Assembly (NCBI GenBank): GCA_964577825.1
Contig: CAZOBJ010000001.1
Coordinates: 11,421-75,420, forward strand
Direction: 5' to 3'
DNA from: an uncultured Planctomycetales bacterium
GTDB taxonomy: Bacteria; Planctomycetota; SZUA-567; JAFGNG01
DNA length: 64,000 bases
Notes under the pieces: model-generated
What the model was told of the DNA's origin: nothing
The model's input: the letters and a program-made list of their open reading frames with translations, nothing else
Databases searched by the model: none
Shown here: piece by piece, positions 2,428 to 62,225 of the stretch
Numbering within the stretch: position 1 is the first letter of the stretch
How the letters are laid out: each line of letters starts with the position of its first letter
Made by a program: the position numbers and the translations under genes

Positions 2428-4212
2428 ATGAGGCGGGCGTCTGATCACCTGAGACGGCTGTACCGCAAGCTCATCCCACCGCGCGCCGAGACGTCCGCCG
2501 TGGGGATGACCGTGTTGCTTGCGGGCGTCGTCGGCATCGGCGCCGGCCTGCTGGCGCTGCTGCTCGGCTGGCTCATAACGTGGCTGAACCGCCACCTGTT
2601 CTTCGGTATCGGCCACGGCCTCGACGCGCTTCCCGGTCCGTGGAACTACTGCCTCATCCTGATCCCCGCGGCCGTCTTCCTGCTCGTGGCGTGGGTGCTG
2701 CGCCGCTGGGCGCCGGAGGCGTACGGGGCGGGCATCAGCCACGTGATGAGCGCCGTGGGGCGCGGCGGGTACATCCGCAGGCGCGTCATGTTCATCAAGC
2801 CCCTGGCGACTGCGCTCTGCATCGGCGCCGGCGCCCCGCTGGGGATGGAGGGGCCGGTTGTCCAGGCGGGCGCAGCCGTGGGGAGCGCGGTCGGCGGACG
2901 CTTCAAGATGGGCGTTGAGAACATCCGCATCCTCGTGGCTGCCGGGGCGGCCGCCGGGCTGGCGGCCAAGTACGGCGCCCCCATCGGCGGGGCGGTCTTC
3001 AGCGCCGAGCTGATACTGGGCAGCGCCAGCACGGCCGCGCTGCTCCCGCTGATCGTCGCCTCCTTCCTGGCCGTGCTGACGCGCCACGCCGTCATGGGCG
3101 GGACCCCGGAGTACCAGATCGCCGCCGAACACTTCCATTTCGCGGGCGCGGACTACCTGGCTTTCCTGGTGCTGGGCGTGGCCTGCGGGCTGGCGGCAGT
3201 CTATTTCATCAAGACGATCTTCGCCGCCGAAGCGACGATGGACCGGCTCTTCTCCCAGTGGTGGGCGAAGGCGCTGTTCGGCGGCCTCGTCGTGGGGCTG
3301 GTCGGTTTCCTGTGCCGGGACCTGCTGGGCACCGGGCGGCCTGTTATCCAAACCTTGCTGACGGAGCCCGAGTACTCCCTGAAGCTGCTGCTGTTGTTCG
3401 TGGTCCTCAAGCCCTTGCTCTGCAGCACTGCGCTGGCGTCCGGGACGAGCGGGGGCATATTCGCGCCTTCGCTCTTCGCGGGGGCCGCGCTGGGGGCGCT
3501 CTTCGTGCGGGTCCTCTCCGGCGGCCTCTCGCTCGAGACGGCGCCGACGGCCGCTTACGTGATGGTGGGCATGGCCGCCGTGATGGGAGCCGTCATGCGC
3601 GCGCCGCTCCAGGCGATACTGGTCACCTTCGAGCTGGCGCACAACTACTCGCTGGTGCCGCCGCTGATGATCGCCTGCGTCGTCAGCCTGAAGGTCTCGG
3701 AGCTGTTCGAGCCCGAGTCGGCCTTCACGCGCTGGCTGGTGCGCAAGGGAGAGCGAATCAGGCGCGGGATGGACTTCGCCCTTCTCGACGGGATTCGAGT
3801 TCGGGACATCATGGACGAGCAGTACGTCGCGCTGCCGGCGGACGCTTCAATCGGCGAGATCGCGCCCCTTGTCCGGGCCTCCGAGAACCGGACCTTTCCG
3901 GTCGTTGGCGATGACGGTAAGCTCGCGGGAATCGTCATGCTGGCCGGCCTGATGGCGGCGGCCGTGCGTTCGGCTGCGGGGGCGCCCCAGCCCGCCGTGC
4001 GCGAATTGCTGGAGCCCGAACCCGTTTACCTCGGGCCGGACGATTCGCTGGCCAGGGCCTGGCGGGTCATGGGGAACTACGACTACGACTGCCTGCCGGT
4101 TTGCCTGTGGACCCCCGAGGGCCTCAACATCCTGGGCATCTGCGAGAAAGAGGCGATCGTCGAGATGCACGACCGGCAGGCGTTCGTTACTCTGAGCCGC
4201 CGGTCCCGGTAG
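2428..4212 (+). CDS. ClC-family voltage-gated chloride channel / H+-Cl- antiporter with C-terminal CBS pair
   Basis: ClC signature motifs GMEGP (GxEGP) and GGIFAPS (GxFxP) are present, along with multiple TM helices. The C-terminal ~140 aa look like tandem CBS repeats. Confidence 0.9.
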   Translation: MRRASDHLRRLYRKLIPPRAETSAVGMTVLLAGVVGIGAGLLALLLGWLITWLNRHLFFGIGHGLDALPGPWNYCLILIPAAVFLLVAWVLRRWAPEAYGAGISHVMSAVGRGGYIRRRVMFIKPLATALCIGAGAPLGMEGPVVQAGAAVGSAVGGRFKMGVENIRILVAAGAAAGLAAKYGAPIGGAVFSAELILGSASTAALLPLIVASFLAVLTRHAVMGGTPEYQIAAEHFHFAGADYLAFLVLGVACGLAAVYFIKTIFAAEATMDRLFSQWWAKALFGGLVVGLVGFLCRDLLGTGRPVIQTLLTEPEYSLKLLLLFVVLKPLLCSTALASGTSGGIFAPSLFAGAALGALFVRVLSGGLSLETAPTAAYVMVGMAAVMGAVMRAPLQAILVTFELAHNYSLVPPLMIACVVSLKVSELFEPESAFTRWLVRKGERIRRGMDFALLDGIRVRDIMDEQYVALPADASIGEIAPLVRASENRTFPVVGDDGKLAGIVMLAGLMAAAVRSAAGAPQPAVRELLEPEPVYLGPDDSLARAWRVMGNYDYDCLPVCLWTPEGLNILGICEKEAIVEMHDRQAFVTLSRRSR

Positions 4213-4230: not shown

Positions 4231-5343
4231 GTGGGAGCGCGCATGAAGGCGCACCGTGCCATCGTCGCAGCCCTGGCGTTCTGTGCGGTTGCCCCGGCGA
4301 GTGCGGCCGTCCGGTTGGCGCCCCCGCGCGGCCGGATCGCTCGGGAGGTGTTGCTGTACTGGGCCGTTTCGCAGCGCGCCGAACGGATCGCCGAGCCGGG
4401 CCACCACGAGTTCGAGTTCGCCCTCGCCGCCGAGGGCGAGGGGACCGTCAAGGTCCAAGTGGTGGTGACCCGTGAGCCCGTCCCCGGGCGCGAGCGGGAC
4501 GCCGCGTATCCCGAGCGCACGACTGCGCAGGTCCTTGAGATCGCCTCGGAGGGCAAGGCGGCCCAGGTACGCTTCAGTGACGCCTTTCGGGAGGGGGACG
4601 TCGGAGCACGGGACCAGCCCGTGCCCGTGCAGCTCCCGGACGGTCAGAGGATTCCCATCTGTCACAGTTTCGTGACCGAGGCGGGGATCACCTGCCTGGT
4701 GCCGGAGGGCGCCGCCGACCTGCAACTCGTCCGGGCCGCCATGGCCGGCGACGTGCTGACGATGCGGGGCCAGGTCTTCGGCGTGCAGGATCTGGGGCCG
4801 TGCGTCGTGATTGACGGGGTGAAGTTCGCAGGTGACGAGCACGCCGCGGACGAGCCGCCCTGGGCCGTCCGCGTGCTGGGGGGCGGGCGCGACGTGAGCC
4901 TGGGCAGCGAACCGGGCGATTACACGGTCCGCATACCGCGCGGCGACGGTCAGGGGGAGGGAAACGCGCTCCTGGTCCGGCAGCGCCAGTTCAAGGTCGT
5001 GGACCTGGAGGCGAACGGCCACAAGATCGTGGCCGAGCTGGCGGCCAGCCCGCGCGAGACGAGCTACGGCCTCCAGGGCCGGCGCGGACTGGAGACCGAC
5101 CACGGGATGCTCTTCTTCTTCGCCCGGCCGGGACACCCCGTTTTCGTCATGAAGACGGTCTCTTTCCCCATCTCCATCGCCTTCATCCGCGCCGACGGGA
5201 TCGTTACGAACATCGGGCGGATGAACCCGGGAGACCAGAGAGGCGTGACGTCGGTCGTGCCGGTCAACTACGTCCTGGAGATGGAGCAGGACTGGTTCGA
5301 GGAGCACGAGGTGAAGCCCGGGGACCGCCTGACTATGCCCTGA
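4231..5343 (+). CDS. secreted DUF192 domain-containing protein with long N-terminal extension
   Basis: A signal-peptide-like N-terminus (AIVAALAFCAVAPASAA) is present. The C-terminal ~110 aa match the DUF192 pattern (GLETDHGMLFFF...FVMKTVSFPISIAFI...NYVLEMEQDWF). Confidence 0.7.
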   Translation: MGARMKAHRAIVAALAFCAVAPASAAVRLAPPRGRIAREVLLYWAVSQRAERIAEPGHHEFEFALAAEGEGTVKVQVVVTREPVPGRERDAAYPERTTAQVLEIASEGKAAQVRFSDAFREGDVGARDQPVPVQLPDGQRIPICHSFVTEAGITCLVPEGAADLQLVRAAMAGDVLTMRGQVFGVQDLGPCVVIDGVKFAGDEHAADEPPWAVRVLGGGRDVSLGSEPGDYTVRIPRGDGQGEGNALLVRQRQFKVVDLEANGHKIVAELAASPRETSYGLQGRRGLETDHGMLFFFARPGHPVFVMKTVSFPISIAFIRADGIVTNIGRMNPGDQRGVTSVVPVNYVLEMEQDWFEEHEVKPGDRLTMP

Positions 5344-5356
5344 CGCCGCCCCTGCG

Positions 5357-7393
5357 TCACGTGCAGGGCTCCTCCAGGATGCGGACGCCGAAGGGCTCCA
5401 GTTCGAGCCCGCCCGTGCGCGGTTCCCCGGTCAGCATGTCGCGGTACTCGCCGTCGCCCAGCTCGATGCGTGCCGCCTCCCGGTTGTGGTTGAGCACGAA
5501 GAGGAAGCTGCGGTCCTTCTGGCTGCGGCGGCGCACCTCCACGCCCTCCGGGCTCTCCAGGACGCCTGAGATGCCGCAGTCCGCGCAGAGCCGCGCGTAG
5601 AAGTTGGACAGGAAGTCCTCCCCGACGTCGGCCCCAACGTAGTAGGCCAGACCGTCTCCGAGGCGGTTCTCGGTCACAACGGGCCGGCCCGCGTAGAAGT
5701 CGTCGCCGTAAGCGGCGAGCACGCGGGCGGTCTCGGCGTGGGCGAGTTCGCAGAGCCGGCGGCACTCGTAGGCGCCCTCGCACGGCCCGAAATCGGCCTG
5801 CATGACGACCTGGTTGGTCCAGTCCTCGAAGAGGGCGTCAATTTCCTCGACCCAGACGCCGAGCGTCCGGCGGAGCGCGCCCGGATAGCCGCCCAGGTAG
5901 GCCAGGTCGTGCTCGTCCACCCAGCCGGTCAAGAAGGTGGCGACGAAGCGCCCGCCGGACTCGACGAATTGCTCGATCCGCTCCGCCCATTCGCGGCGGA
6001 CCGAGTAGAGCATCGGCGCGATGACCAGGTCGTAACCGGACAGGTCCGCCCCGGCGTCGATCACGTGAACCGGCACGTTCCGCTCCCAGAGGGTGCGGTA
6101 GTGCTTGAAGGCGGTCTCGCGGTAGCGCTTCTCGCGGATCGGCCCGGCGGTGGCGTCGAGGGTCCACCAGTTCTCCCAGTCGAAGATGAGGGCGACGCGC
6201 GCCTCCACGCCGGAGCCGAGGACGCCGTCTTCCAGCCGCTCCAGCTCTGCGCCGAGCCGGGACACCTCGGCGAAAACGCGCGTGTTCTCGTGACCGGCGT
6301 GGGCGACGACGGCGCCGTGGAGCTTCTCGCACCCGCCCCGGCCGCGCCTCCACTGGAAATACATGACCGAGTCCGCGCCGTGCGCCACGGCCAGGTGGCT
6401 CCACAGCCGCATCTGGCCGGGCCTCTTCAGGGCGTTGACGGTCTGCCAGTTCTGGGAACTCGGCGTCTGCTCCATCAGCATGAACGGCTGCCCGCCGCCC
6501 TTCAGCCCGTACATCAGGTCGTGCTGGAAGGCCACGTCGGCGACGTCGCCCCGGATGCTGGGGTAGCAGTCCCACGAGACGACGTCCACGTGGGGCGCCC
6601 ACTTGTGGTAGTCCAGGGTGTAGTGGAAGCCCATCATGTTGGTCGTCACGGGCACCTCGGGGGTGACCTCGCGCAACACGCCGGCCTCGTTCAGGAAGCA
6701 TTCGAGCAGGGCGTCGCTGCTGAAGCGCCGGTAGTCCACGTTCACGGCGGGGATGCTCCCCTCGCCGTTTTCGCGGGGGGGCTCCACCTGCGACCAGTCG
6801 GTGTAGGTGTGGCTCCAAAACGGCGTGTACCAGTTGCGGTTGAGTTCGTCGAGCGAGCCGTGCCGGCGCTTGAGCCACTGGCGGAAGGCTTCGGCGCAGT
6901 TCTCGCAGTAACAGGCCCCCGAGTACTCGTTCGAGACGTGCCAGAGCACCAGCGCGGGATGGTCCCTGTATCGCTCCGCCAGCTTGCGGGCGATCGTCGC
7001 ACATGCCCCGCGGTAGGCCGTGGAGTTCGGGCAGAAGTTGACCCTGTGACCGTGGCCTTTGCGGCGCCCGGACGCGTCCGAGCGCAGGACCTCCGGGTGC
7101 TGCTGCGAGAGCCACGCGGGGTGCGCGGCGCTCGGCGTGGCGAGGACGGCGTAGAGCCCGTTGTCGGCCAGCTTGTCCATGATGGTGTCGAGCCAGCCGA
7201 ACTCGAACGTGTCCGGCGCCGGCTGGAGGCTGACCCAACTGAACACGCCCACGGTGGCGACGTTGACGTTGGCCAGCTTCATGAGGCGCACGTCCTCGTC
7301 CCACACGTCGTCCGGCCACTGTTCGGGGTTGTAGTCACCCCCGTGGAAGAAGCGCGGCAGCCTCGTGCTGATGAGCGGGTGCATTCTCTCCAT
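5357..7393 (-). CDS. beta-galactosidase, glycoside hydrolase family 42
   Basis: GH42 hallmarks are present (FFHGGDYNPEQWP, WHVSNEY, zinc site CYCENC). The start is set to ATG 7391-7393 (MERMHPLI), preceded by GGAGAA. The 50 aa upstream in the ORF are not family-like. Confidence 0.9.
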   Translation of the reverse strand: MERMHPLISTRLPRFFHGGDYNPEQWPDDVWDEDVRLMKLANVNVATVGVFSWVSLQPAPDTFEFGWLDTIMDKLADNGLYAVLATPSAAHPAWLSQQHPEVLRSDASGRRKGHGHRVNFCPNSTAYRGACATIARKLAERYRDHPALVLWHVSNEYSGACYCENCAEAFRQWLKRRHGSLDELNRNWYTPFWSHTYTDWSQVEPPRENGEGSIPAVNVDYRRFSSDALLECFLNEAGVLREVTPEVPVTTNMMGFHYTLDYHKWAPHVDVVSWDCYPSIRGDVADVAFQHDLMYGLKGGGQPFMLMEQTPSSQNWQTVNALKRPGQMRLWSHLAVAHGADSVMYFQWRRGRGGCEKLHGAVVAHAGHENTRVFAEVSRLGAELERLEDGVLGSGVEARVALIFDWENWWTLDATAGPIREKRYRETAFKHYRTLWERNVPVHVIDAGADLSGYDLVIAPMLYSVRREWAERIEQFVESGGRFVATFLTGWVDEHDLAYLGGYPGALRRTLGVWVEEIDALFEDWTNQVVMQADFGPCEGAYECRRLCELAHAETARVLAAYGDDFYAGRPVVTENRLGDGLAYYVGADVGEDFLSNFYARLCADCGISGVLESPEGVEVRRRSQKDRSFLFVLNHNREAARIELGDGEYRDMLTGEPRTGGLELEPFGVRILEEPCT

Positions 7394-44248: not shown

Positions 44249-45147
44249 ATGTGGGACGCCAACGCCGAGTGGTGGGATGACCGCATCGGCGATGGCAACG
44301 ACTTCCAGGAGGAACTGATCGAGCCGGCCACGGAGCGACTGCTGGAGATCTGGCCTGGCTCAACCGTGCTCGACGTCGGCTGTGGGGCGGGGAGGTTCGC
44401 CCGCAGGATGGCCGAACTCGGCGCCCGTGTCTTGGCGTGCGACTACAGCGAGCGGTTCATCGAGCGCGCCAGGTCGCGCACGGCCTCGGCCGGCGTCGAG
44501 AACATCGAGTACCGTCTCGTCGACGCGACGGACCGGGGCCCGCTCCTCGCGCTCGGCGCCGGGTGCTTCGACGGTGCGGTCGCCACGATGTGCCTGATGG
44601 ACATGGCGGCCATCGAGCCGCTGTTCGGTGCCCTGCCGGTGCTCCTGAAGCCGGCCGGCTGGTTCGTCTTCTCGGTCACGCACCCGTGCTTCCAGGCGCC
44701 CGGTTTCGTCAAGTTCGCCGAATCGGTGGACTCCGACGGCCGCTACTCGGAACGGACGGGCGTGAAGGTGAGCCACTACCTGAGGCCCTCTGCGCGGAAA
44801 GGAGAGGGGATCATCGGGCAGCCGCAGCCGCAGTATTACTTCGATCGACCGCTGCACGTGCTCCTAGCAGCCCGTTGAAGAAGGAGGATTCCCCGGAGAG
44901 TGCCTGCGCGAGGGGCCGTGTCGGTGTAGCACAGGCGCCCTCGCCTGTGCCGTTCTCAGCCGGGGGCGGCTGAGCTACATTTTTCAACGGGCTGCTAGGG
45001 GCGGGGTTCCGCCAGGGCTTCGTTGTGGACGCCCTGGAGGAGCCGGGCTTCCGCCCGGGAGAGGAGCGGCCGCCGTGCCTGCGCTGGTGCAATATGCCTG
45101 AGATACCACCCGTGCTGGTCGTTCGGATGCGCCTGGCCAGACCGTGA
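44249..45147 (+). pseudogene. class I SAM-dependent methyltransferase, disrupted by a 129-bp insertion
   Basis: The SAM-binding motif VLDVGCGAGRFA is present. The frame ends at TGA 44876-44878, yet the family's C-terminus (GAGFRQGFVVDALEEPGF...PPVLVVRMRLARP*) continues in another frame to 45147. Removing 131 bp restores a 255-aa ORF. The start is ATG 44249 or TTG 44228. Confidence 0.75.
44867..44995. mobile_element. MITE-like non-autonomous element (129 bp, 13-bp TIRs, TA target-site duplication)
   Basis: The element has a left end GCAGCCCGTTGAA and a right end TTCAACGGGCTGC, which are perfect inverted repeats. It is flanked by TA at 44865-66 and 44996-97. Internal hairpins lie at 44929-44950 and 44955-44974. 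It encodes no ORF of its own. Confidence 0.7.
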
Positions 45148-45166: not shown

Positions 45167-46051
45167 TTACAGCGTGCGATTCTCGAGGAGCTGGCGCCTG
45201 GTCGCGCCGTTCAGCAGCCGGTCGTTGCTGCACTCCATCCAGTCCACCAGGCGCTGCCGGAGGCGGGAGAGTTCGCCGGCGCACGAGGGACCGCGCGCAC
45301 GGTTGCGCAGCTCCCACAGGTCGGACTCCAGGTCGTACAGCTCGTCCTCCGCCGTGGCGTTCCAAACGTACTTCCAGCGCCGGTCGCGGACCATGCGCTG
45401 GCTGAACAGGCCGAACTGGTTGCCGTGATAGCCGGCGAAGATGTCCGGGCGACCGTTCTCGCGCCCGCCCGCGAAGAGGGGCAGCAGGCTCTGCCCGTGG
45501 AAGGTCTCCGGCACCGGCACGCCCGCCGCCTGGAGGGACGTCACGGGCAGGTCAATCGAGTTGGAGACGAAAGCGTCGCACTGCGTGCCCGCCTCGATGC
45601 TGCCCGGCCGGCGCGCGATGAAGGGCACGTGCACCACGTCGTGGTACATGATGAAATGCTTGTCTATCATGCCGTGGCTGCCGCACATGTCGCCGTGGTC
45701 GGTCGTGTAGATGACCAGCATGTCCTCGGCGAGGCCGAGTTCATCCAGCGCCGCCAGGACGCGCCCGATCTGTGCGTCCATGAGGCTGATCTCGCCCAGG
45801 TAGCGGGACACGACGGGGGCCCACTGCTCCCAGGTCCAATCCTCTATATTCCAGGTGCGCAGCTGCTGGGCCTGGGCGTAGGGCTTGCCCTGGAAATCGT
45901 CGCCGAAGCTCCCCCATGGCTCGATCTCGGACGGGTCGTGCATGGAGGCGTAAGGCTCGGGCGGGTGGTTCGCCAGGTGTGGCTCCGGCGGGTTCCAACG
46001 GATGAAGAACGGCTCCGCCGCCCCGGCACGCGCCCGGAGCATGGAGATCAC
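45167..46051 (-). pseudogene. sulfatase (arylsulfatase A family), 5'-truncated remnant
   Basis: The 294 aa correspond to the C-terminal two-thirds of a sulfatase (EPFFIRWNPPEPH..., LVIYTTDHGDMCGSHGM, ...YDLESDLWELRN). The N-terminal ~150-200 aa, which carry the C/S-x-P-x-R formylglycine motif, are absent. A plus-strand promoter and gene occupy that space instead. Confidence 0.65.
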
Positions 46052-46135: not shown

Positions 46136-47473
46136 ATGTTGGGAGGACTGCGGTTGATCGATTTGCTTCTGGGAATGCCCGTGCTGGTGAAGGTGCTGGG
46201 CGCGCTCTCACTGATCCTGGCGTTGAGCCGCGTCTGCAAGCACCTGACCATCGCGGTGTTGGTGGCGGCGGTGGTGCTCGGGCTCTGGTCGGGCCATTCG
46301 CCGGCCTCGATGCTGGACATAGCCTGGCAGCGGGTCAGTTCCTTTGAGGACCTCGTGCTCCTGTTCGTCGTGTTGGAGGTGATCTGGCTCAGTTCGCAGA
46401 TGGCCGCCACGGGCGTGATGGAGGACCTCGTGAAGTCCGTGCGCGGCCGGGTCTCGCGCCGGACCTCGATGGCGGTGCTTCCTGCTGTCATCGGCCTGTT
46501 GCCCATGCCGGGAGGCGCGCTCTTCTCGGCACCGCTGGTGGACAGGTGCGACGAGAACGGTGAGGTGCACCCCGGCCTGAAGGCGCAGACCAACCACTGG
46601 TTCCGTCACATCTGGGAGTACTGGTGGCCCCTGTACCCAGGCGTGCTCCTGGCGATGCAGGAGGCGAAACTGGACATCTGGCAGTTCGTGCTGCTCCAAC
46701 TGCCCCTGACCCTCTTCGCCATCGGCGCCGGCTACCTCTTTCTGCTCCGGCGGATAGAGGGCGGTACGCGAAGAGCCTCTGGGCTGGCCGGCGAGGACGT
46801 GCCGGCCTTCCTGCCCCTGGTACTGCCCATCATAGTGGTCATCGCCTCTTATGCTGTCGTCAGGCTGTCTTACTGGGGAGTTCGGACGGCGTGGATGGGG
46901 GTCCCGGAGATGAACCGCTATCTCCCGATGGCGCTGGGCCTGCTGGCGGCGATTCTTGTGCTTCAGGCCCGCCGGCCCATCGACAGCAGGCGATGGTGGA
47001 AGATACTGTTTGCCCGGCGGGCGATGGCCATGCTCATCATAGTGGCCGCTGTCCGCGTTTACGGGGCGTTCATCGACGCTGAGTTGCCGGGAGGCCAGCC
47101 GCTGGCCGAATTGCTGCGTTTCGAGATGGCCGCCTGGGGCATTCCCCTGATAGCGATCGTGATGCTGCTTCCCCTCGTCAGCGGGCTGGCCACGGGGCTG
47201 TCCATCGGCTTCGTCGGGGCGAGCTTCCCCATCATCGTGAGCCTGCTCGGCCCGGCGCCCTCAACCGGGGCGCTTCTTTCCACCGTGGTGCTGGCCTACG
47301 GGTTCGGATACATGGGGATGCTGCTCTCGCCCGTGCACGTCTGCCTGGTCGTCACGAGCGAGCACTTCGAGACGCGCCTGCTGCGCAACATGGCGGGGCT
47401 GCTGATGCCGGCCATAGCGATGTTGATAGCAGCGTTCTGCATGCACTCCGCCGTGGCGTGGATCTTCCACTGA
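46136..47473 (+). CDS. DUF401-family integral membrane protein (TIGR00529-like)
   Basis: The protein is 445 aa and polytopic. The motif LPAVIGLLPMPGGALFSAPLV is as I recall for DUF401 proteins. Confidence 0.6.
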   Translation: MLGGLRLIDLLLGMPVLVKVLGALSLILALSRVCKHLTIAVLVAAVVLGLWSGHSPASMLDIAWQRVSSFEDLVLLFVVLEVIWLSSQMAATGVMEDLVKSVRGRVSRRTSMAVLPAVIGLLPMPGGALFSAPLVDRCDENGEVHPGLKAQTNHWFRHIWEYWWPLYPGVLLAMQEAKLDIWQFVLLQLPLTLFAIGAGYLFLLRRIEGGTRRASGLAGEDVPAFLPLVLPIIVVIASYAVVRLSYWGVRTAWMGVPEMNRYLPMALGLLAAILVLQARRPIDSRRWWKILFARRAMAMLIIVAAVRVYGAFIDAELPGGQPLAELLRFEMAAWGIPLIAIVMLLPLVSGLATGLSIGFVGASFPIIVSLLGPAPSTGALLSTVVLAYGFGYMGMLLSPVHVCLVVTSEHFETRLLRNMAGLLMPAIAMLIAAFCMHSAVAWIFH

Positions 47474-60902: not shown

Positions 60903-60944
60903 GGCGCGCCGCTCCGGCCGACCCCCATGCGAAGGGAGGCGGGG

Positions 60945-62075
60945 ATGAAGATAACCGGCATCCGCACGTTCCTCATCGGCAATCCGTGGAAGAACTGGGT
61001 GATCGCGCGCGTCGAGACGGACGAGGGCCTCAGCGGCCTCGGCGAGGCCACGTCCCCGACGGCCGGGGCGCTGGCGGCCGAACTGAAGGAACTGAGCCGC
61101 TTCGTCGTCGGCATGGACCCCCGCGAGCCCGTGCGCGTCTATGAGGCGATGTACAAGGGCGTCTTCCTGCGCAACACCCCCGGCATCTGCGCCATCGAGA
61201 TCGCCTGCTGGGACATCCTGGGCAAGAGCCTCGGTGCGCCGCTCTGGCGGCTTCTCGGCGGCAGGGCGCAGGGCCGGCTCCGCGCCTACGCCAACGGCTG
61301 GTACAAGTGCCCCCGCGAGCCCGCCGCTTTCGCCGAACGCGCCGTCGCCGTGAAGGAGATGGGCTACACGGCCCTGAAGTTCGACCCCTTCGGCGCGGCC
61401 TACCTCGACCTCGACACGGCCGAACAGAAGCTCTCGCTCTCGCTGGTGCGGGCCGTGCGCGACGCCGTGGGGGAGGGCGTGGACCTGCTGATCGAGGGGC
61501 ACGACCGCTTCAGCACGAGCACGGCGGTCCGGGTCGGCCGGGCGTTGGAGGAGTTCCGTCCGGCGTGGTTCGAGACCCCCGTGCACTCGGCGGATCTCAA
61601 GGCCACGGTCGAGGTTGCGCGGGCGATCCCGGTGCCGGTGGCCAGCGGGGAGCGCCTCTCGCGTCTGAGCGAGTTCGCCGACCTGCTCGCGCCGAGGGCC
61701 GTTTCCATCGTCCAGCCGGAGCCGTTGCGTTGCGGGGGCGTGGGCGGCACGGTGCGGGTGGCGGCGCTGGCCCGGGCGCACGGCGCGCTGGTCGCCTGCC
61801 ACCAGGCGCAGAGCCCCCTGAGCACCGCCCTGAACGCCCACCTGCACGCTGCCATGCCGAACTTCATGATCCAGGAGTGCTTCGACGACTTCCTGGAGCC
61901 CTGGGCGCGGGACCTGTTCCCCGGCGTGCCGCGCGTGGTGGACGGCTGCATCGAGCCGCCCGACGCATCCGGCATCGGCGTCGAGCTGAACGAGGAAGAG
62001 GCCGCCCGGCACCCGTATGGCGAGGACAAGTTCATCCGCCTCTTCGAGCCCGGCTGGGAGCGCCGCCGGCGCTAG
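60945..62075 (+). CDS. mandelate racemase/muconate lactonizing enzyme-family acid-sugar dehydratase (second enolase-superfamily member)
   Basis: The start is MKITGIRTFLIGNPWKNWVIARVETDEGLSGLGEAT. Metal-ligand regions are present (LIEGHDRF, SGERL, IVQPEPLRCGG). The substrate cannot be assigned by eye. Confidence 0.8.
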   Translation: MKITGIRTFLIGNPWKNWVIARVETDEGLSGLGEATSPTAGALAAELKELSRFVVGMDPREPVRVYEAMYKGVFLRNTPGICAIEIACWDILGKSLGAPLWRLLGGRAQGRLRAYANGWYKCPREPAAFAERAVAVKEMGYTALKFDPFGAAYLDLDTAEQKLSLSLVRAVRDAVGEGVDLLIEGHDRFSTSTAVRVGRALEEFRPAWFETPVHSADLKATVEVARAIPVPVASGERLSRLSEFADLLAPRAVSIVQPEPLRCGGVGGTVRVAALARAHGALVACHQAQSPLSTALNAHLHAAMPNFMIQECFDDFLEPWARDLFPGVPRVVDGCIEPPDASGIGVELNEEEAARHPYGEDKFIRLFEPGWERRRR

Positions 62076-62225
62076 TGGCCCGTTCAACCGATAACCTTGC
62101 ACTCCGGGCCCACCCCCGGCGAGACGCCGGGGGCTACCCATAGGGGTAGGCGGGGCGTCTCGCCCCGCTGCCTGGTTCAGACATAACTCGCAAAACGCAA
62201 GGTGACTTCCTCATCAGGCCACTAG
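62072..62225. repeat. palindromic/structured element bounded by 9-bp inverted repeats (possible second MITE-like element)
   Basis: CTAGTGGCC (62072-62080) and GGCCACTAG (62217-62225) are exact inverted repeats, each containing TA. A bipartite hairpin lies inside: GGCGAGACGCC at 62118-62128 pairs with GGCGTCTCGCC at 62154-62164, and an inner CTACCC/GGGTAG stem spans 62134-62149. The left end resembles the 44863 MITE end in 12 of 16 positions. Confidence 0.4.

Follow-up and report, generated by a model that had tools for sequence, protein, structure and literature searches.

The plant Stowaway elements are an example of MITEs of the IS630/Tc1-mariner type. The Correia/NEMIS elements of Neisseria are approximately 100-155 bp long, carry terminal inverted repeats (TIRs), duplicate TA, occur in many copies, and combine a strong hairpin potential with possible effects on transcripts. 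Members of the IS427 group of the IS5 family, such as IS1301, duplicate TA at the target AYTAG; they are approximately 0.85 kb long and encode a frameshifted two-ORF transposase without DUF772. Transposition by HUH enzymes leaves no target duplication and does not need TIRs. Insertion sequences (ISs) of the IS1182 family are approximately 1.3-1.9 kb in ISfinder. The Correia/NEMIS elements have been counted among the bacterial MITEs, and GTAG REPs occur in PVC bacteria (PMC3733652). IS1182-derived MITEs have been documented in Methanosarcina acetivorans, where one of the two MITE families derived from ISMac2 has 4-bp repeats (PMC3852290). As to the target, the IS1182-family ISPsy36 uses GGCC and the IS630-family ISPsy32 uses CTAG (PMC8027508).

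The locus considered here lies in a 64-kb window, by which we mean the whole stretch of DNA that was analysed. Sequence inspection agreed with the coordinates that a preliminary description had given for a 129-bp element with a perfect 13-bp TIR, TA/TA flanks, and two stem-loops. The element occupies positions 44867-44995; its first bases are GCAGCCCGTTGAA (left TIR, 44867-44879, + strand) and its last bases are TTCAACGGGCTGC as read on the + strand (right TIR, 44983-44995, - strand). Both TIRs are presumed to be the ends bound and cleaved by a transposase, since the same sequences terminate ~1.5-kb transposase-encoding ISs. The element is bordered by two copies of TA. The left copy (44865-44866) forms CTAG with C44864 and the element's first G, and the right copy (44996-44997) forms CTAG with the element's last C and G44998. 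Since the CTAG target is palindromic, the inverted repeat in the window is in fact 17 bp long (CCTA+13 / 13+TAGG); when the TIR was extended inward instead, 15 of 17 positions matched. The sole reading frames in the 129 bp are read-through from the flanks, so that the element has no coding capacity, and its size falls below the ~300 bp usually set for MITEs.

Sequence and folding located internal hairpin 1, GCACAGGCG-CCCT-CGCCTGTGC, at 44929-44950 (+ strand). It is directly preceded by GTA, which gives it a likeness to a GTAG-tagged REP, and its stem is 9 bp in the window copy vs 8 bp in the copies of the MAG CAZQEQ01, where one base is different. Internal hairpin 2, CTCAGCCG-GGGG-CGGCTGAG (44955-44974), is followed by CTACATTTTT; the whole feature (44955-44984, + strand), recovered by a consensus scan and by folding, resembles an intrinsic terminator on the + strand. 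The element folded better than its shuffles on both strands (z of -4.9 and -5.5). An Rfam covariance search of the element returned best matches of at most 21 bits with E of at least 0.68, far under the gathering scores.

As a bare statistic the 13-bp TIR is weak and, alone, not beyond chance: a perfect 13-bp inverted repeat spanning 60-300 bp was present in ~48% of Markov-simulated 64-kb windows. The feature was judged real because copies recur elsewhere and the alignment with orthologues is colinear. Within the 64-kb window itself there was only the one copy, and matches to the 13-mer with two mismatches occurred in about the expected number. CTAG is scarce in the window, with 11 sites, two of which were created by the element.

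The gene that carries the insertion had been described as a SAM-dependent methyltransferase with the rest of its C-terminus in a different reading frame, and this was upheld by ungapped orthologues of ~70% identity. The 5' part (44249-44878, + strand), recognised from the ORF list, its translation, and Pfam, runs three codons into the element and then meets TGA at 44876-44878 (...LLAAR*), as had been reported, giving the 209-aa truncated product P0001. The stranded 3' remnant (44998-45147, + strand), placed by ungapped alignment to orthologues, consists of 49 codons and a stop (GAGFRQGF...EIPPVLVVRMRLARP*). The insertion site corresponds to codons 206/207 (CTC CTA GGG). Removal of the element together with one TA, 131 bp in all, yielded CTC CTA GGG GCG and the clean 255-aa ORF foreseen in the preliminary description, beginning with ATG 44249 and closed by the stop at 45147. 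Among the deletions tried (129, 131, 133, and 135 bp), only that of 131 bp restored the orthologous frame and spacing. Therefore, the TA is a true 2-bp target-site duplication at the methyltransferase site, as had been proposed, and TA flanks are frequent across the element family.

Once repaired, the protein belongs to the class I SAM-dependent methyltransferases (Pfam Methyltransf_11/25/31, E ~1e-15) and has more than 2,400 homologues, the best intact ones being 62-71% identical over 96-100% coverage. In 12 orthologues (62-70% identity) there was no gap at the junction (...RPLHVLLGAGFRQGF...). None of them ends at ...LLAAR; all 12 run ~49 residues past the truncation, to a conserved ...EIPPVLVVRMRL C-terminus. 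Since the orthologues have ~20 extra N-terminal residues compared to the methyltransferase read from ATG 44249, the true start may lie upstream, for example at TTG 44228. An intact close allele was not found in a collection of 5.8 billion proteins, in which the best match after P0001 was 71% identical. A close relative with an empty site was likewise absent from the collections, and the empty site (uninterrupted ...CTCCTAGGGGCG... / ...CACGTGCTCCTAGGGGCGGGG...) was reconstructed at the protein level only.

An AlphaFold model of the repaired protein (pLDDT 76.6, pTM 0.78) assigned the missing segment (residues 207-255) to the last part of helix 202-211 and to the core strands 214-220 and 245-252. 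In the class I methyltransferase topology, these strands are the last two of the core sheet. Since, in this model, two core strands and a portion of a helix are lost, the insertion most likely inactivates the enzyme. The 3' remnant was 0.51-0.65 identical to the orthologues, vs a mean of 0.55 among the orthologues themselves in the same region. By this comparison the remnant is free of decay, and the insertion is therefore evolutionarily recent. For annotation, the gene is best called a MITE-disrupted pseudogene rather than a short methyltransferase.

Repeats are known to cause mis-joins, and two Logan contigs end within the element; an assembly artefact or chimeric join, with the 129 bp not truly inside the gene, was therefore weighed. 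The gene of P0001 was located on eight contigs, and five places were retrieved. The exact insertion with identical flanks was present in three assemblies (ENA ERZ27256770, ENA ERZ27256778, and JGI 3300017987), which differ in pipeline and sample, and both junctions have the structure canonical for the family, CTA/G...C/TAG. The two Logan contigs stop exactly 26 nt into the element. Together with the 4-nt flank CCTA this makes 30 nt, which equals k-1 for the k of 31 that we take Logan to use. Since several other copies share the CCTA flank, a break at that point marks a genuine repeat that is multicopy in those samples. An artefact is thus hardly credible, and the repeat itself accounts for contig breaks in short-read assemblies of such organisms.

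Further copies were searched for with the pattern GCAGCCCGTTGAA-N(88-118)-TTCAACGGGCTGC in one genome per species; since perfect TIRs were required, the counts are lower bounds. The element, which the preliminary description had called MITE-like, is multicopy: at least 77 further loci in 36 MAGs carried the identical TIR pair, at total lengths of 114-143 bp. The MAG CAZQEQ01 alone had 12 copies on 12 contigs, 92.6-99.3% identical to the window element. The hosts were mostly Planctomycetota (Thermoguttaceae, Pirellulales, Gemmataceae, Planctomycetaceae, and Phycisphaerales), with a few in Kiritimatiellae, Victivallales, Verrucomicrobia, Binatia, Polyangia/Sandaracinus, Desulfobulbaceae, and one Bacteroidetes bin; some of the non-PVC hosts could be binning errors. 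Being small and non-coding, with TIRs, a target-site duplication, dispersed copies, and termini in common with a transposase-encoding element, the 129-bp sequence is a true MITE.

The flanks were compared across 78 copies, the window copy included. TA was present on the left in 64 (82%) and on the right in 59 (76%), on both sides in 53, and CTA...TAG flanked 37; the preferred target is thus CTAG. A 4-bp duplication of CTAG was ruled out by copies flanked by TTA...TAA, CTA...TAA, or ATA...TAG. Such flanks show that the G and the C at the two extremities belong to the element, and with them an insertion re-creates CTAG on either side. The MITE sites showed no preference for stop codons or gene ends, 41.5% of them, vs 41.7% of baseline CTAG sites, being located where a long open frame ends.

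The subfamilies have only ~17 nt per end in common (consensus GCAGCCCGTTGAAAAAG). Their interiors are unrelated yet hairpin-rich, and their lengths are alike at 114-143 bp. A foldback origin, with the whole element palindromic, was rejected for most copies: the self-complementarity of the interiors had a median of 0.48 vs 0.41 for shuffles, and was 0.42 for the window copy. The terminal 13-mer was not found in the literature searched; shorter substrings of the terminus matched primers or a Cas12b sgRNA scaffold (TTTTTCAACGGG), matches that we judged coincidental.

Viral contigs scanned with the 17-nt terminus yielded a 1,515-bp element at the locus L084, arranged as TA/GCAGCCCGTTGAAAAAGTCAG...CTTCTTCAACGGGCTGT/TA. 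Its one long frame is interrupted by an in-frame TAG, and the encoded protein matched DUF772 (2e-16), DDE_Tnp_1 (7e-8), and DDE_Tnp_1_6; its best NCBIfam model was IS1182 (5e-48), followed by IS5_4. In protein collections, all 8,000 scored candidates of this transposase family were significant. The best 120 of the 8,000 were mostly full-length (~459 aa) and 70-90% identical, with a few truncated, and most came from contigs of 1.5-2 kb, as is typical of assembled repeats.

From metagenomes, 80 loci were retrieved via the protein only. Since they were chosen through the protein and not the DNA, they provide an unbiased test of the IS ends. In 62 of the 80, a 1.43-1.67-kb element was bounded by GCAGCCCGT.../...ACGGGCTGC. 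When L084 was added to these, TA was found on both sides in 57 of 63 and CTA...TAG in 38 of 63. Over 114 IS ends, the flanking TA was conserved at 98-100% and the first 9 nt at 89-100%; the end was exactly GCAGCCCGTTGAA in 23, and the termini can be written as GCAGCCCGTTGAA(A/G)AAG. Moreover, five NCBI/ENA loci encoded intact transposases of 459-463 aa in elements of 1,511-1,522 bp with TA flanks; the TIRs were exact in four, and the right end of the fifth (L170) was one base off. An identical IS encoding the transposase P0121 was flanked by CCTA...TAAG as well as by CCTA...TAGG, and thus occupied two or more sites in three assemblies. Altogether, ~1.5-kb ISs with the ends of the window MITE and TA flanks were found at 68 loci, and all of them encode a transposase with DUF772 and DDE_Tnp_1 domains (Pfam matches PF05598, PF01609, and PF13751). 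The termini, the TA flanks, and the preference for CTAG are therefore common to the MITEs and to transposase-encoding ISs.

At the left end of the IS, a TTGACA...TATAAT-like promoter precedes the transposase gene; the right end has the sequence ...CGACTTCTTCAACGGGCTGC. Relative to the IS, the window MITE is inverted: its left end is of the GAAGAAG type, as at the right end of the IS, and its right end is of the GAAAAAT type, as at the left end of the IS. Since the window MITE and the IS have only ~17 nt per end in common, the MITE is not a simple internal-deletion derivative. Transposase relatives of ~52% identity lie on proteobacterial plasmids, annotated as 'transposase' or 'IS5 family transposase', and the copy on pLB1 has the same architecture, TA/ACAGGCCGTTGACGAAGTCGG...CGCGCTGC/TA.

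The preliminary description had attributed the element to an IS630/Tc1-mariner-type transposase, on the basis of the TA duplication, and had suggested looking for further copies and for an IS630 transposase with matching ends. The copies were many; the transposase found with these ends was IS1182/IS5-like, and none was of IS630. The expectation was reasonable beforehand, because the IS630-family ISPsy32 targets CTAG (PMC8027508) and a TA duplication with a CTAG preference is classic for IS630. The present element does duplicate TA at an NTAN/CTAG target, but the ISs that carry its termini lack a DDE_3 transposase: no IS630 or DDE_3 model was among the Pfam/NCBIfam matches of the partner transposase, and a six-frame search of ~660 kb of MITE-bearing DNA for the YSPxLNPIE-type signature of IS630/Tc1 returned nothing. 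With all 68 full-length elements encoding the DUF772 and DDE_Tnp_1 (IS1182/IS5-like) enzyme, an IS630 parent for the MITE is not supported, and derivation from and mobilisation by such a transposase is very improbable. A TA/CTAG duplication alone cannot assign a MITE to IS630/Tc1-mariner, and it is not diagnostic here.

For the parent IS, four intact transposases were scored against family models. The best hit was the IS1182 model NF033551 (E of 1e-48 to 1e-49), at 165-170 bits against a cut-off of 270; the IS5_4 model gave 78-87 bits against a cut-off of 140, and other IS5 models scored lower. The curated thresholds of IS1182 and IS5 were thus reached by none of the four proteins. The architecture is nevertheless of the IS1182 type, with DUF772 and a DDE_Tnp_1-type domain in a single ORF within 1.43-1.67 kb bounded by TIRs. 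Since ~168 bits stand against a cut-off of 270, the placement as IS1182-related is approximate and stops short of the NCBI membership criterion.

Some features of the element are also found in REPs and structured RNAs. The GTAG-tagged hairpin of the interior, the GTAGC...GCTAC paired hairpins of other subfamilies, and the occurrence of GTAG REPs in PVC bacteria (PMC3733652) would suit an element of the REP/REPIN type that a RAYT/TIRYT (HUH tyrosine) transposase mobilises; the terminator-like hairpin with its T-run and the strong folding would suit a structured RNA or terminator module selected by the host. Both would replace a DDE-mobilised MITE. However, TIRs and the TA duplication are nearly universal in the element family, and the likeness to a GTAG REP is limited to the interior hairpin. 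The subfamilies have nothing but the terminus of the DDE-encoding IS in common, the interior of the window subfamily was not found alone outside MITEs, there was no Rfam match, and no association of the element copies with RAYT was seen. A terminator role, for its part, fits a MITE as well and is perhaps a secondary effect. We consider a REP-type or RNA-type origin most unlikely.

The best explanation is, with a probability of about 0.88, that the 129 bp are a non-autonomous MITE mobilised in trans by the DDE transposase of a ~1.5-kb IS1182/IS5-related IS and inserted in the methyltransferase gene. In the proposed mechanism, a trans-acting DDE transposase would recognise the ~17-bp ends, excise the element by cut-and-paste, and cut the TA of CTAG with a 2-bp stagger. 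Gap repair would then duplicate the TA, and the G...C ends of the element would restore CTAG at both junctions. We infer the mobilisation in trans and the staggered-cut chemistry from the arrangement of ends and flanks. No full-length IS turned up in the window or across ~560 kb of MITE-bearing MAG loci, and any source of the transposase within the same genome would thus be putative. When the TIR match was relaxed, pairs separated by 500-2000 bp within the 77 MAG loci enclosed selD, an HtrA-type protease, or degraded extra MITEs, and a solitary exact end at L060 was rejected as an IS end. The IS at L140, which has matching ends, belongs to a contig whose number resembles that of a sibling sample (Ga0180435 vs Ga0180431).

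The MITE and its parent IS share properties with each of the systems named at the outset. Like IS1182 ISs and their MITEs, they combine a parent of ~1.5 kb with DUF772 and DDE_Tnp_1/DDE_Tnp_1_6, a short palindromic target, and non-coding derivatives of 114-143 bp; the score of the transposase sets them apart from that family. Unlike ISPsy36 with its GGCC target and the ISMac2 MITE family with its 4-bp repeats, the target here is CTAG and the duplication is the 2-bp TA. In contrast to the IS1182 systems, the hosts are mainly Planctomycetota/PVC, and the 52%-identical relatives lie on proteobacterial plasmids. The TA duplication, the NTAN target with its CTAG preference, and the short TIR-bounded non-coding derivatives are as in IS630/Tc1-mariner elements such as ISPsy32, but the transposase is unrelated and the likeness is confined to target choice. 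On these comparisons, the present lineage joins an IS1182-like enzyme to IS630-like target behaviour.

The size, TIRs, TA duplication, copy number, hairpins, and possible transcript effects recall the Correia/NEMIS elements, whereas the termini are unrelated, the host phylum is another, and an autonomous partner is identified here. With the IS427 group (IS1301), the lineage has in common a DDE transposase of the IS4/IS5 superfamily, a TA duplication at a (C/T)TAG-like target, and termini in the style of G...GTT...AAAA. It differs from that group in that the transposase is a single ORF of ~459 aa with DUF772, and the IS5 models stayed below their cut-off. The insertion is an ordinary MITE insertion that leaves known principles unchanged. 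The analysis documents an abundant IS lineage with many MITE derivatives in Planctomycetota and neighbouring phyla, of which we found no description in the literature searched.

A broader proposal is speculative, and we put it forward as a possibility that is rather less than even: the elements may form an undescribed, PVC-centred MITE superfamily with a ~17-bp IS1182-related terminus that has converged on IS630-style CTAG/TA targeting. Dozens of unrelated hairpin-rich cores, some of them REP-like, would be held to a length of 114-143 bp, and the A-rich and T-rich inner flanks of the TIRs in most, though not all, subfamilies would make them look like portable bidirectional terminators. The cores would have been repeatedly captured or re-invented, and retained partly for functions at transcript ends. 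In most of the other subfamilies, a long G+C-rich hairpin lies between the A5 and T5 of the TIRs. Hairpins bracketed in this way would resemble a terminator in both orientations, possibly as a secondary effect.

Besides the MITE that lies inside the methyltransferase gene, the window carries another element with MITE-like features (62075-62222), 148 bp in length, which is flanked by TA (62073-74 and 62223-24) and has CTAG at both edges. It begins with GTGGCCCGTTCAACC and finishes with CATCAGGCCAC. Its terminal inverted repeat (TIR) is imperfect, and 3 mismatches to the TIR of the main MITE were found within the first 13 nt. The fold of the element (-80.5 kcal/mol, z -7.0) contained three hairpins, GGCGAGACGCC/GGCGTCTCGCC among them. 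Moreover, the TAG stop of a 382-aa enolase-superfamily ORF (60927..62075) is the exact point at which the element starts.

In L059 (5489-5671), a locus of MAG CAZQEQ01, a copy of the main MITE coincides with the TAG stop that terminates a 905-aa ORF, and this stop is regenerated by the first G of the copy. The 52 nt immediately adjoining the copy exhibited 98% identity to window 62174-62225, where the second MITE-like element ends. The arrangement looks like an adjacent insertion into the regenerated CTAG. A similar nested or tandem arrangement was observed in a further locus, L036.

The CTAG tetranucleotide, at which the family preferentially inserts, was found 11 times in the 64-kb window. 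When the window and the MAG loci were taken together (approximately 600 kb), 175 non-junction CTAG sites were present, whereas a rough estimate from base composition gave an expectation of approximately 1,800, about ten-fold more than observed. CTAG is thus strongly depleted, and the targets available to the IS/MITE family are therefore few.

Hairpin modules of 24-29 nt from the interiors of some MITEs were also found standalone in other genomes. Modules from the MITE interiors in L007, L030, L039 and L070 matched L047 at 3994-4018, and modules from the L035 interior matched L071 at 1595-1618 and 4299-4327. Furthermore, several MITE subfamilies contain GTAGC...GCTAC paired hairpins, which resemble GTAG-tagged REPs. 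Since such modules occur standalone and the paired hairpins are REP-like, the comparison suggests that other small repeats may be building blocks from which the MITE cores were assembled.

The transposase frame of the first full-length IS found, on the viral contig L084, is interrupted by a single in-frame TAG (5497-5499). Intact relatives carry a sense codon at this position (consensus E), so that the L084 copy is probably not active. The terminus of the main MITE shares the 12-mer TTTTTCAACGGG with the AapCas12b/AacCas12b sgRNA scaffold as printed in several diagnostic papers, a match that was judged to be a coincidence.

The convergent neighbour of the methyltransferase gene is a sulfatase-domain ORF (Sulfatase and SGSH_C; 45167-46051, minus strand). 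Since its 291-294 aa are short by sulfatase standards and a DUF401 gene begins just beyond it, at 46136, the ORF may be a 5'-truncated gene fragment.
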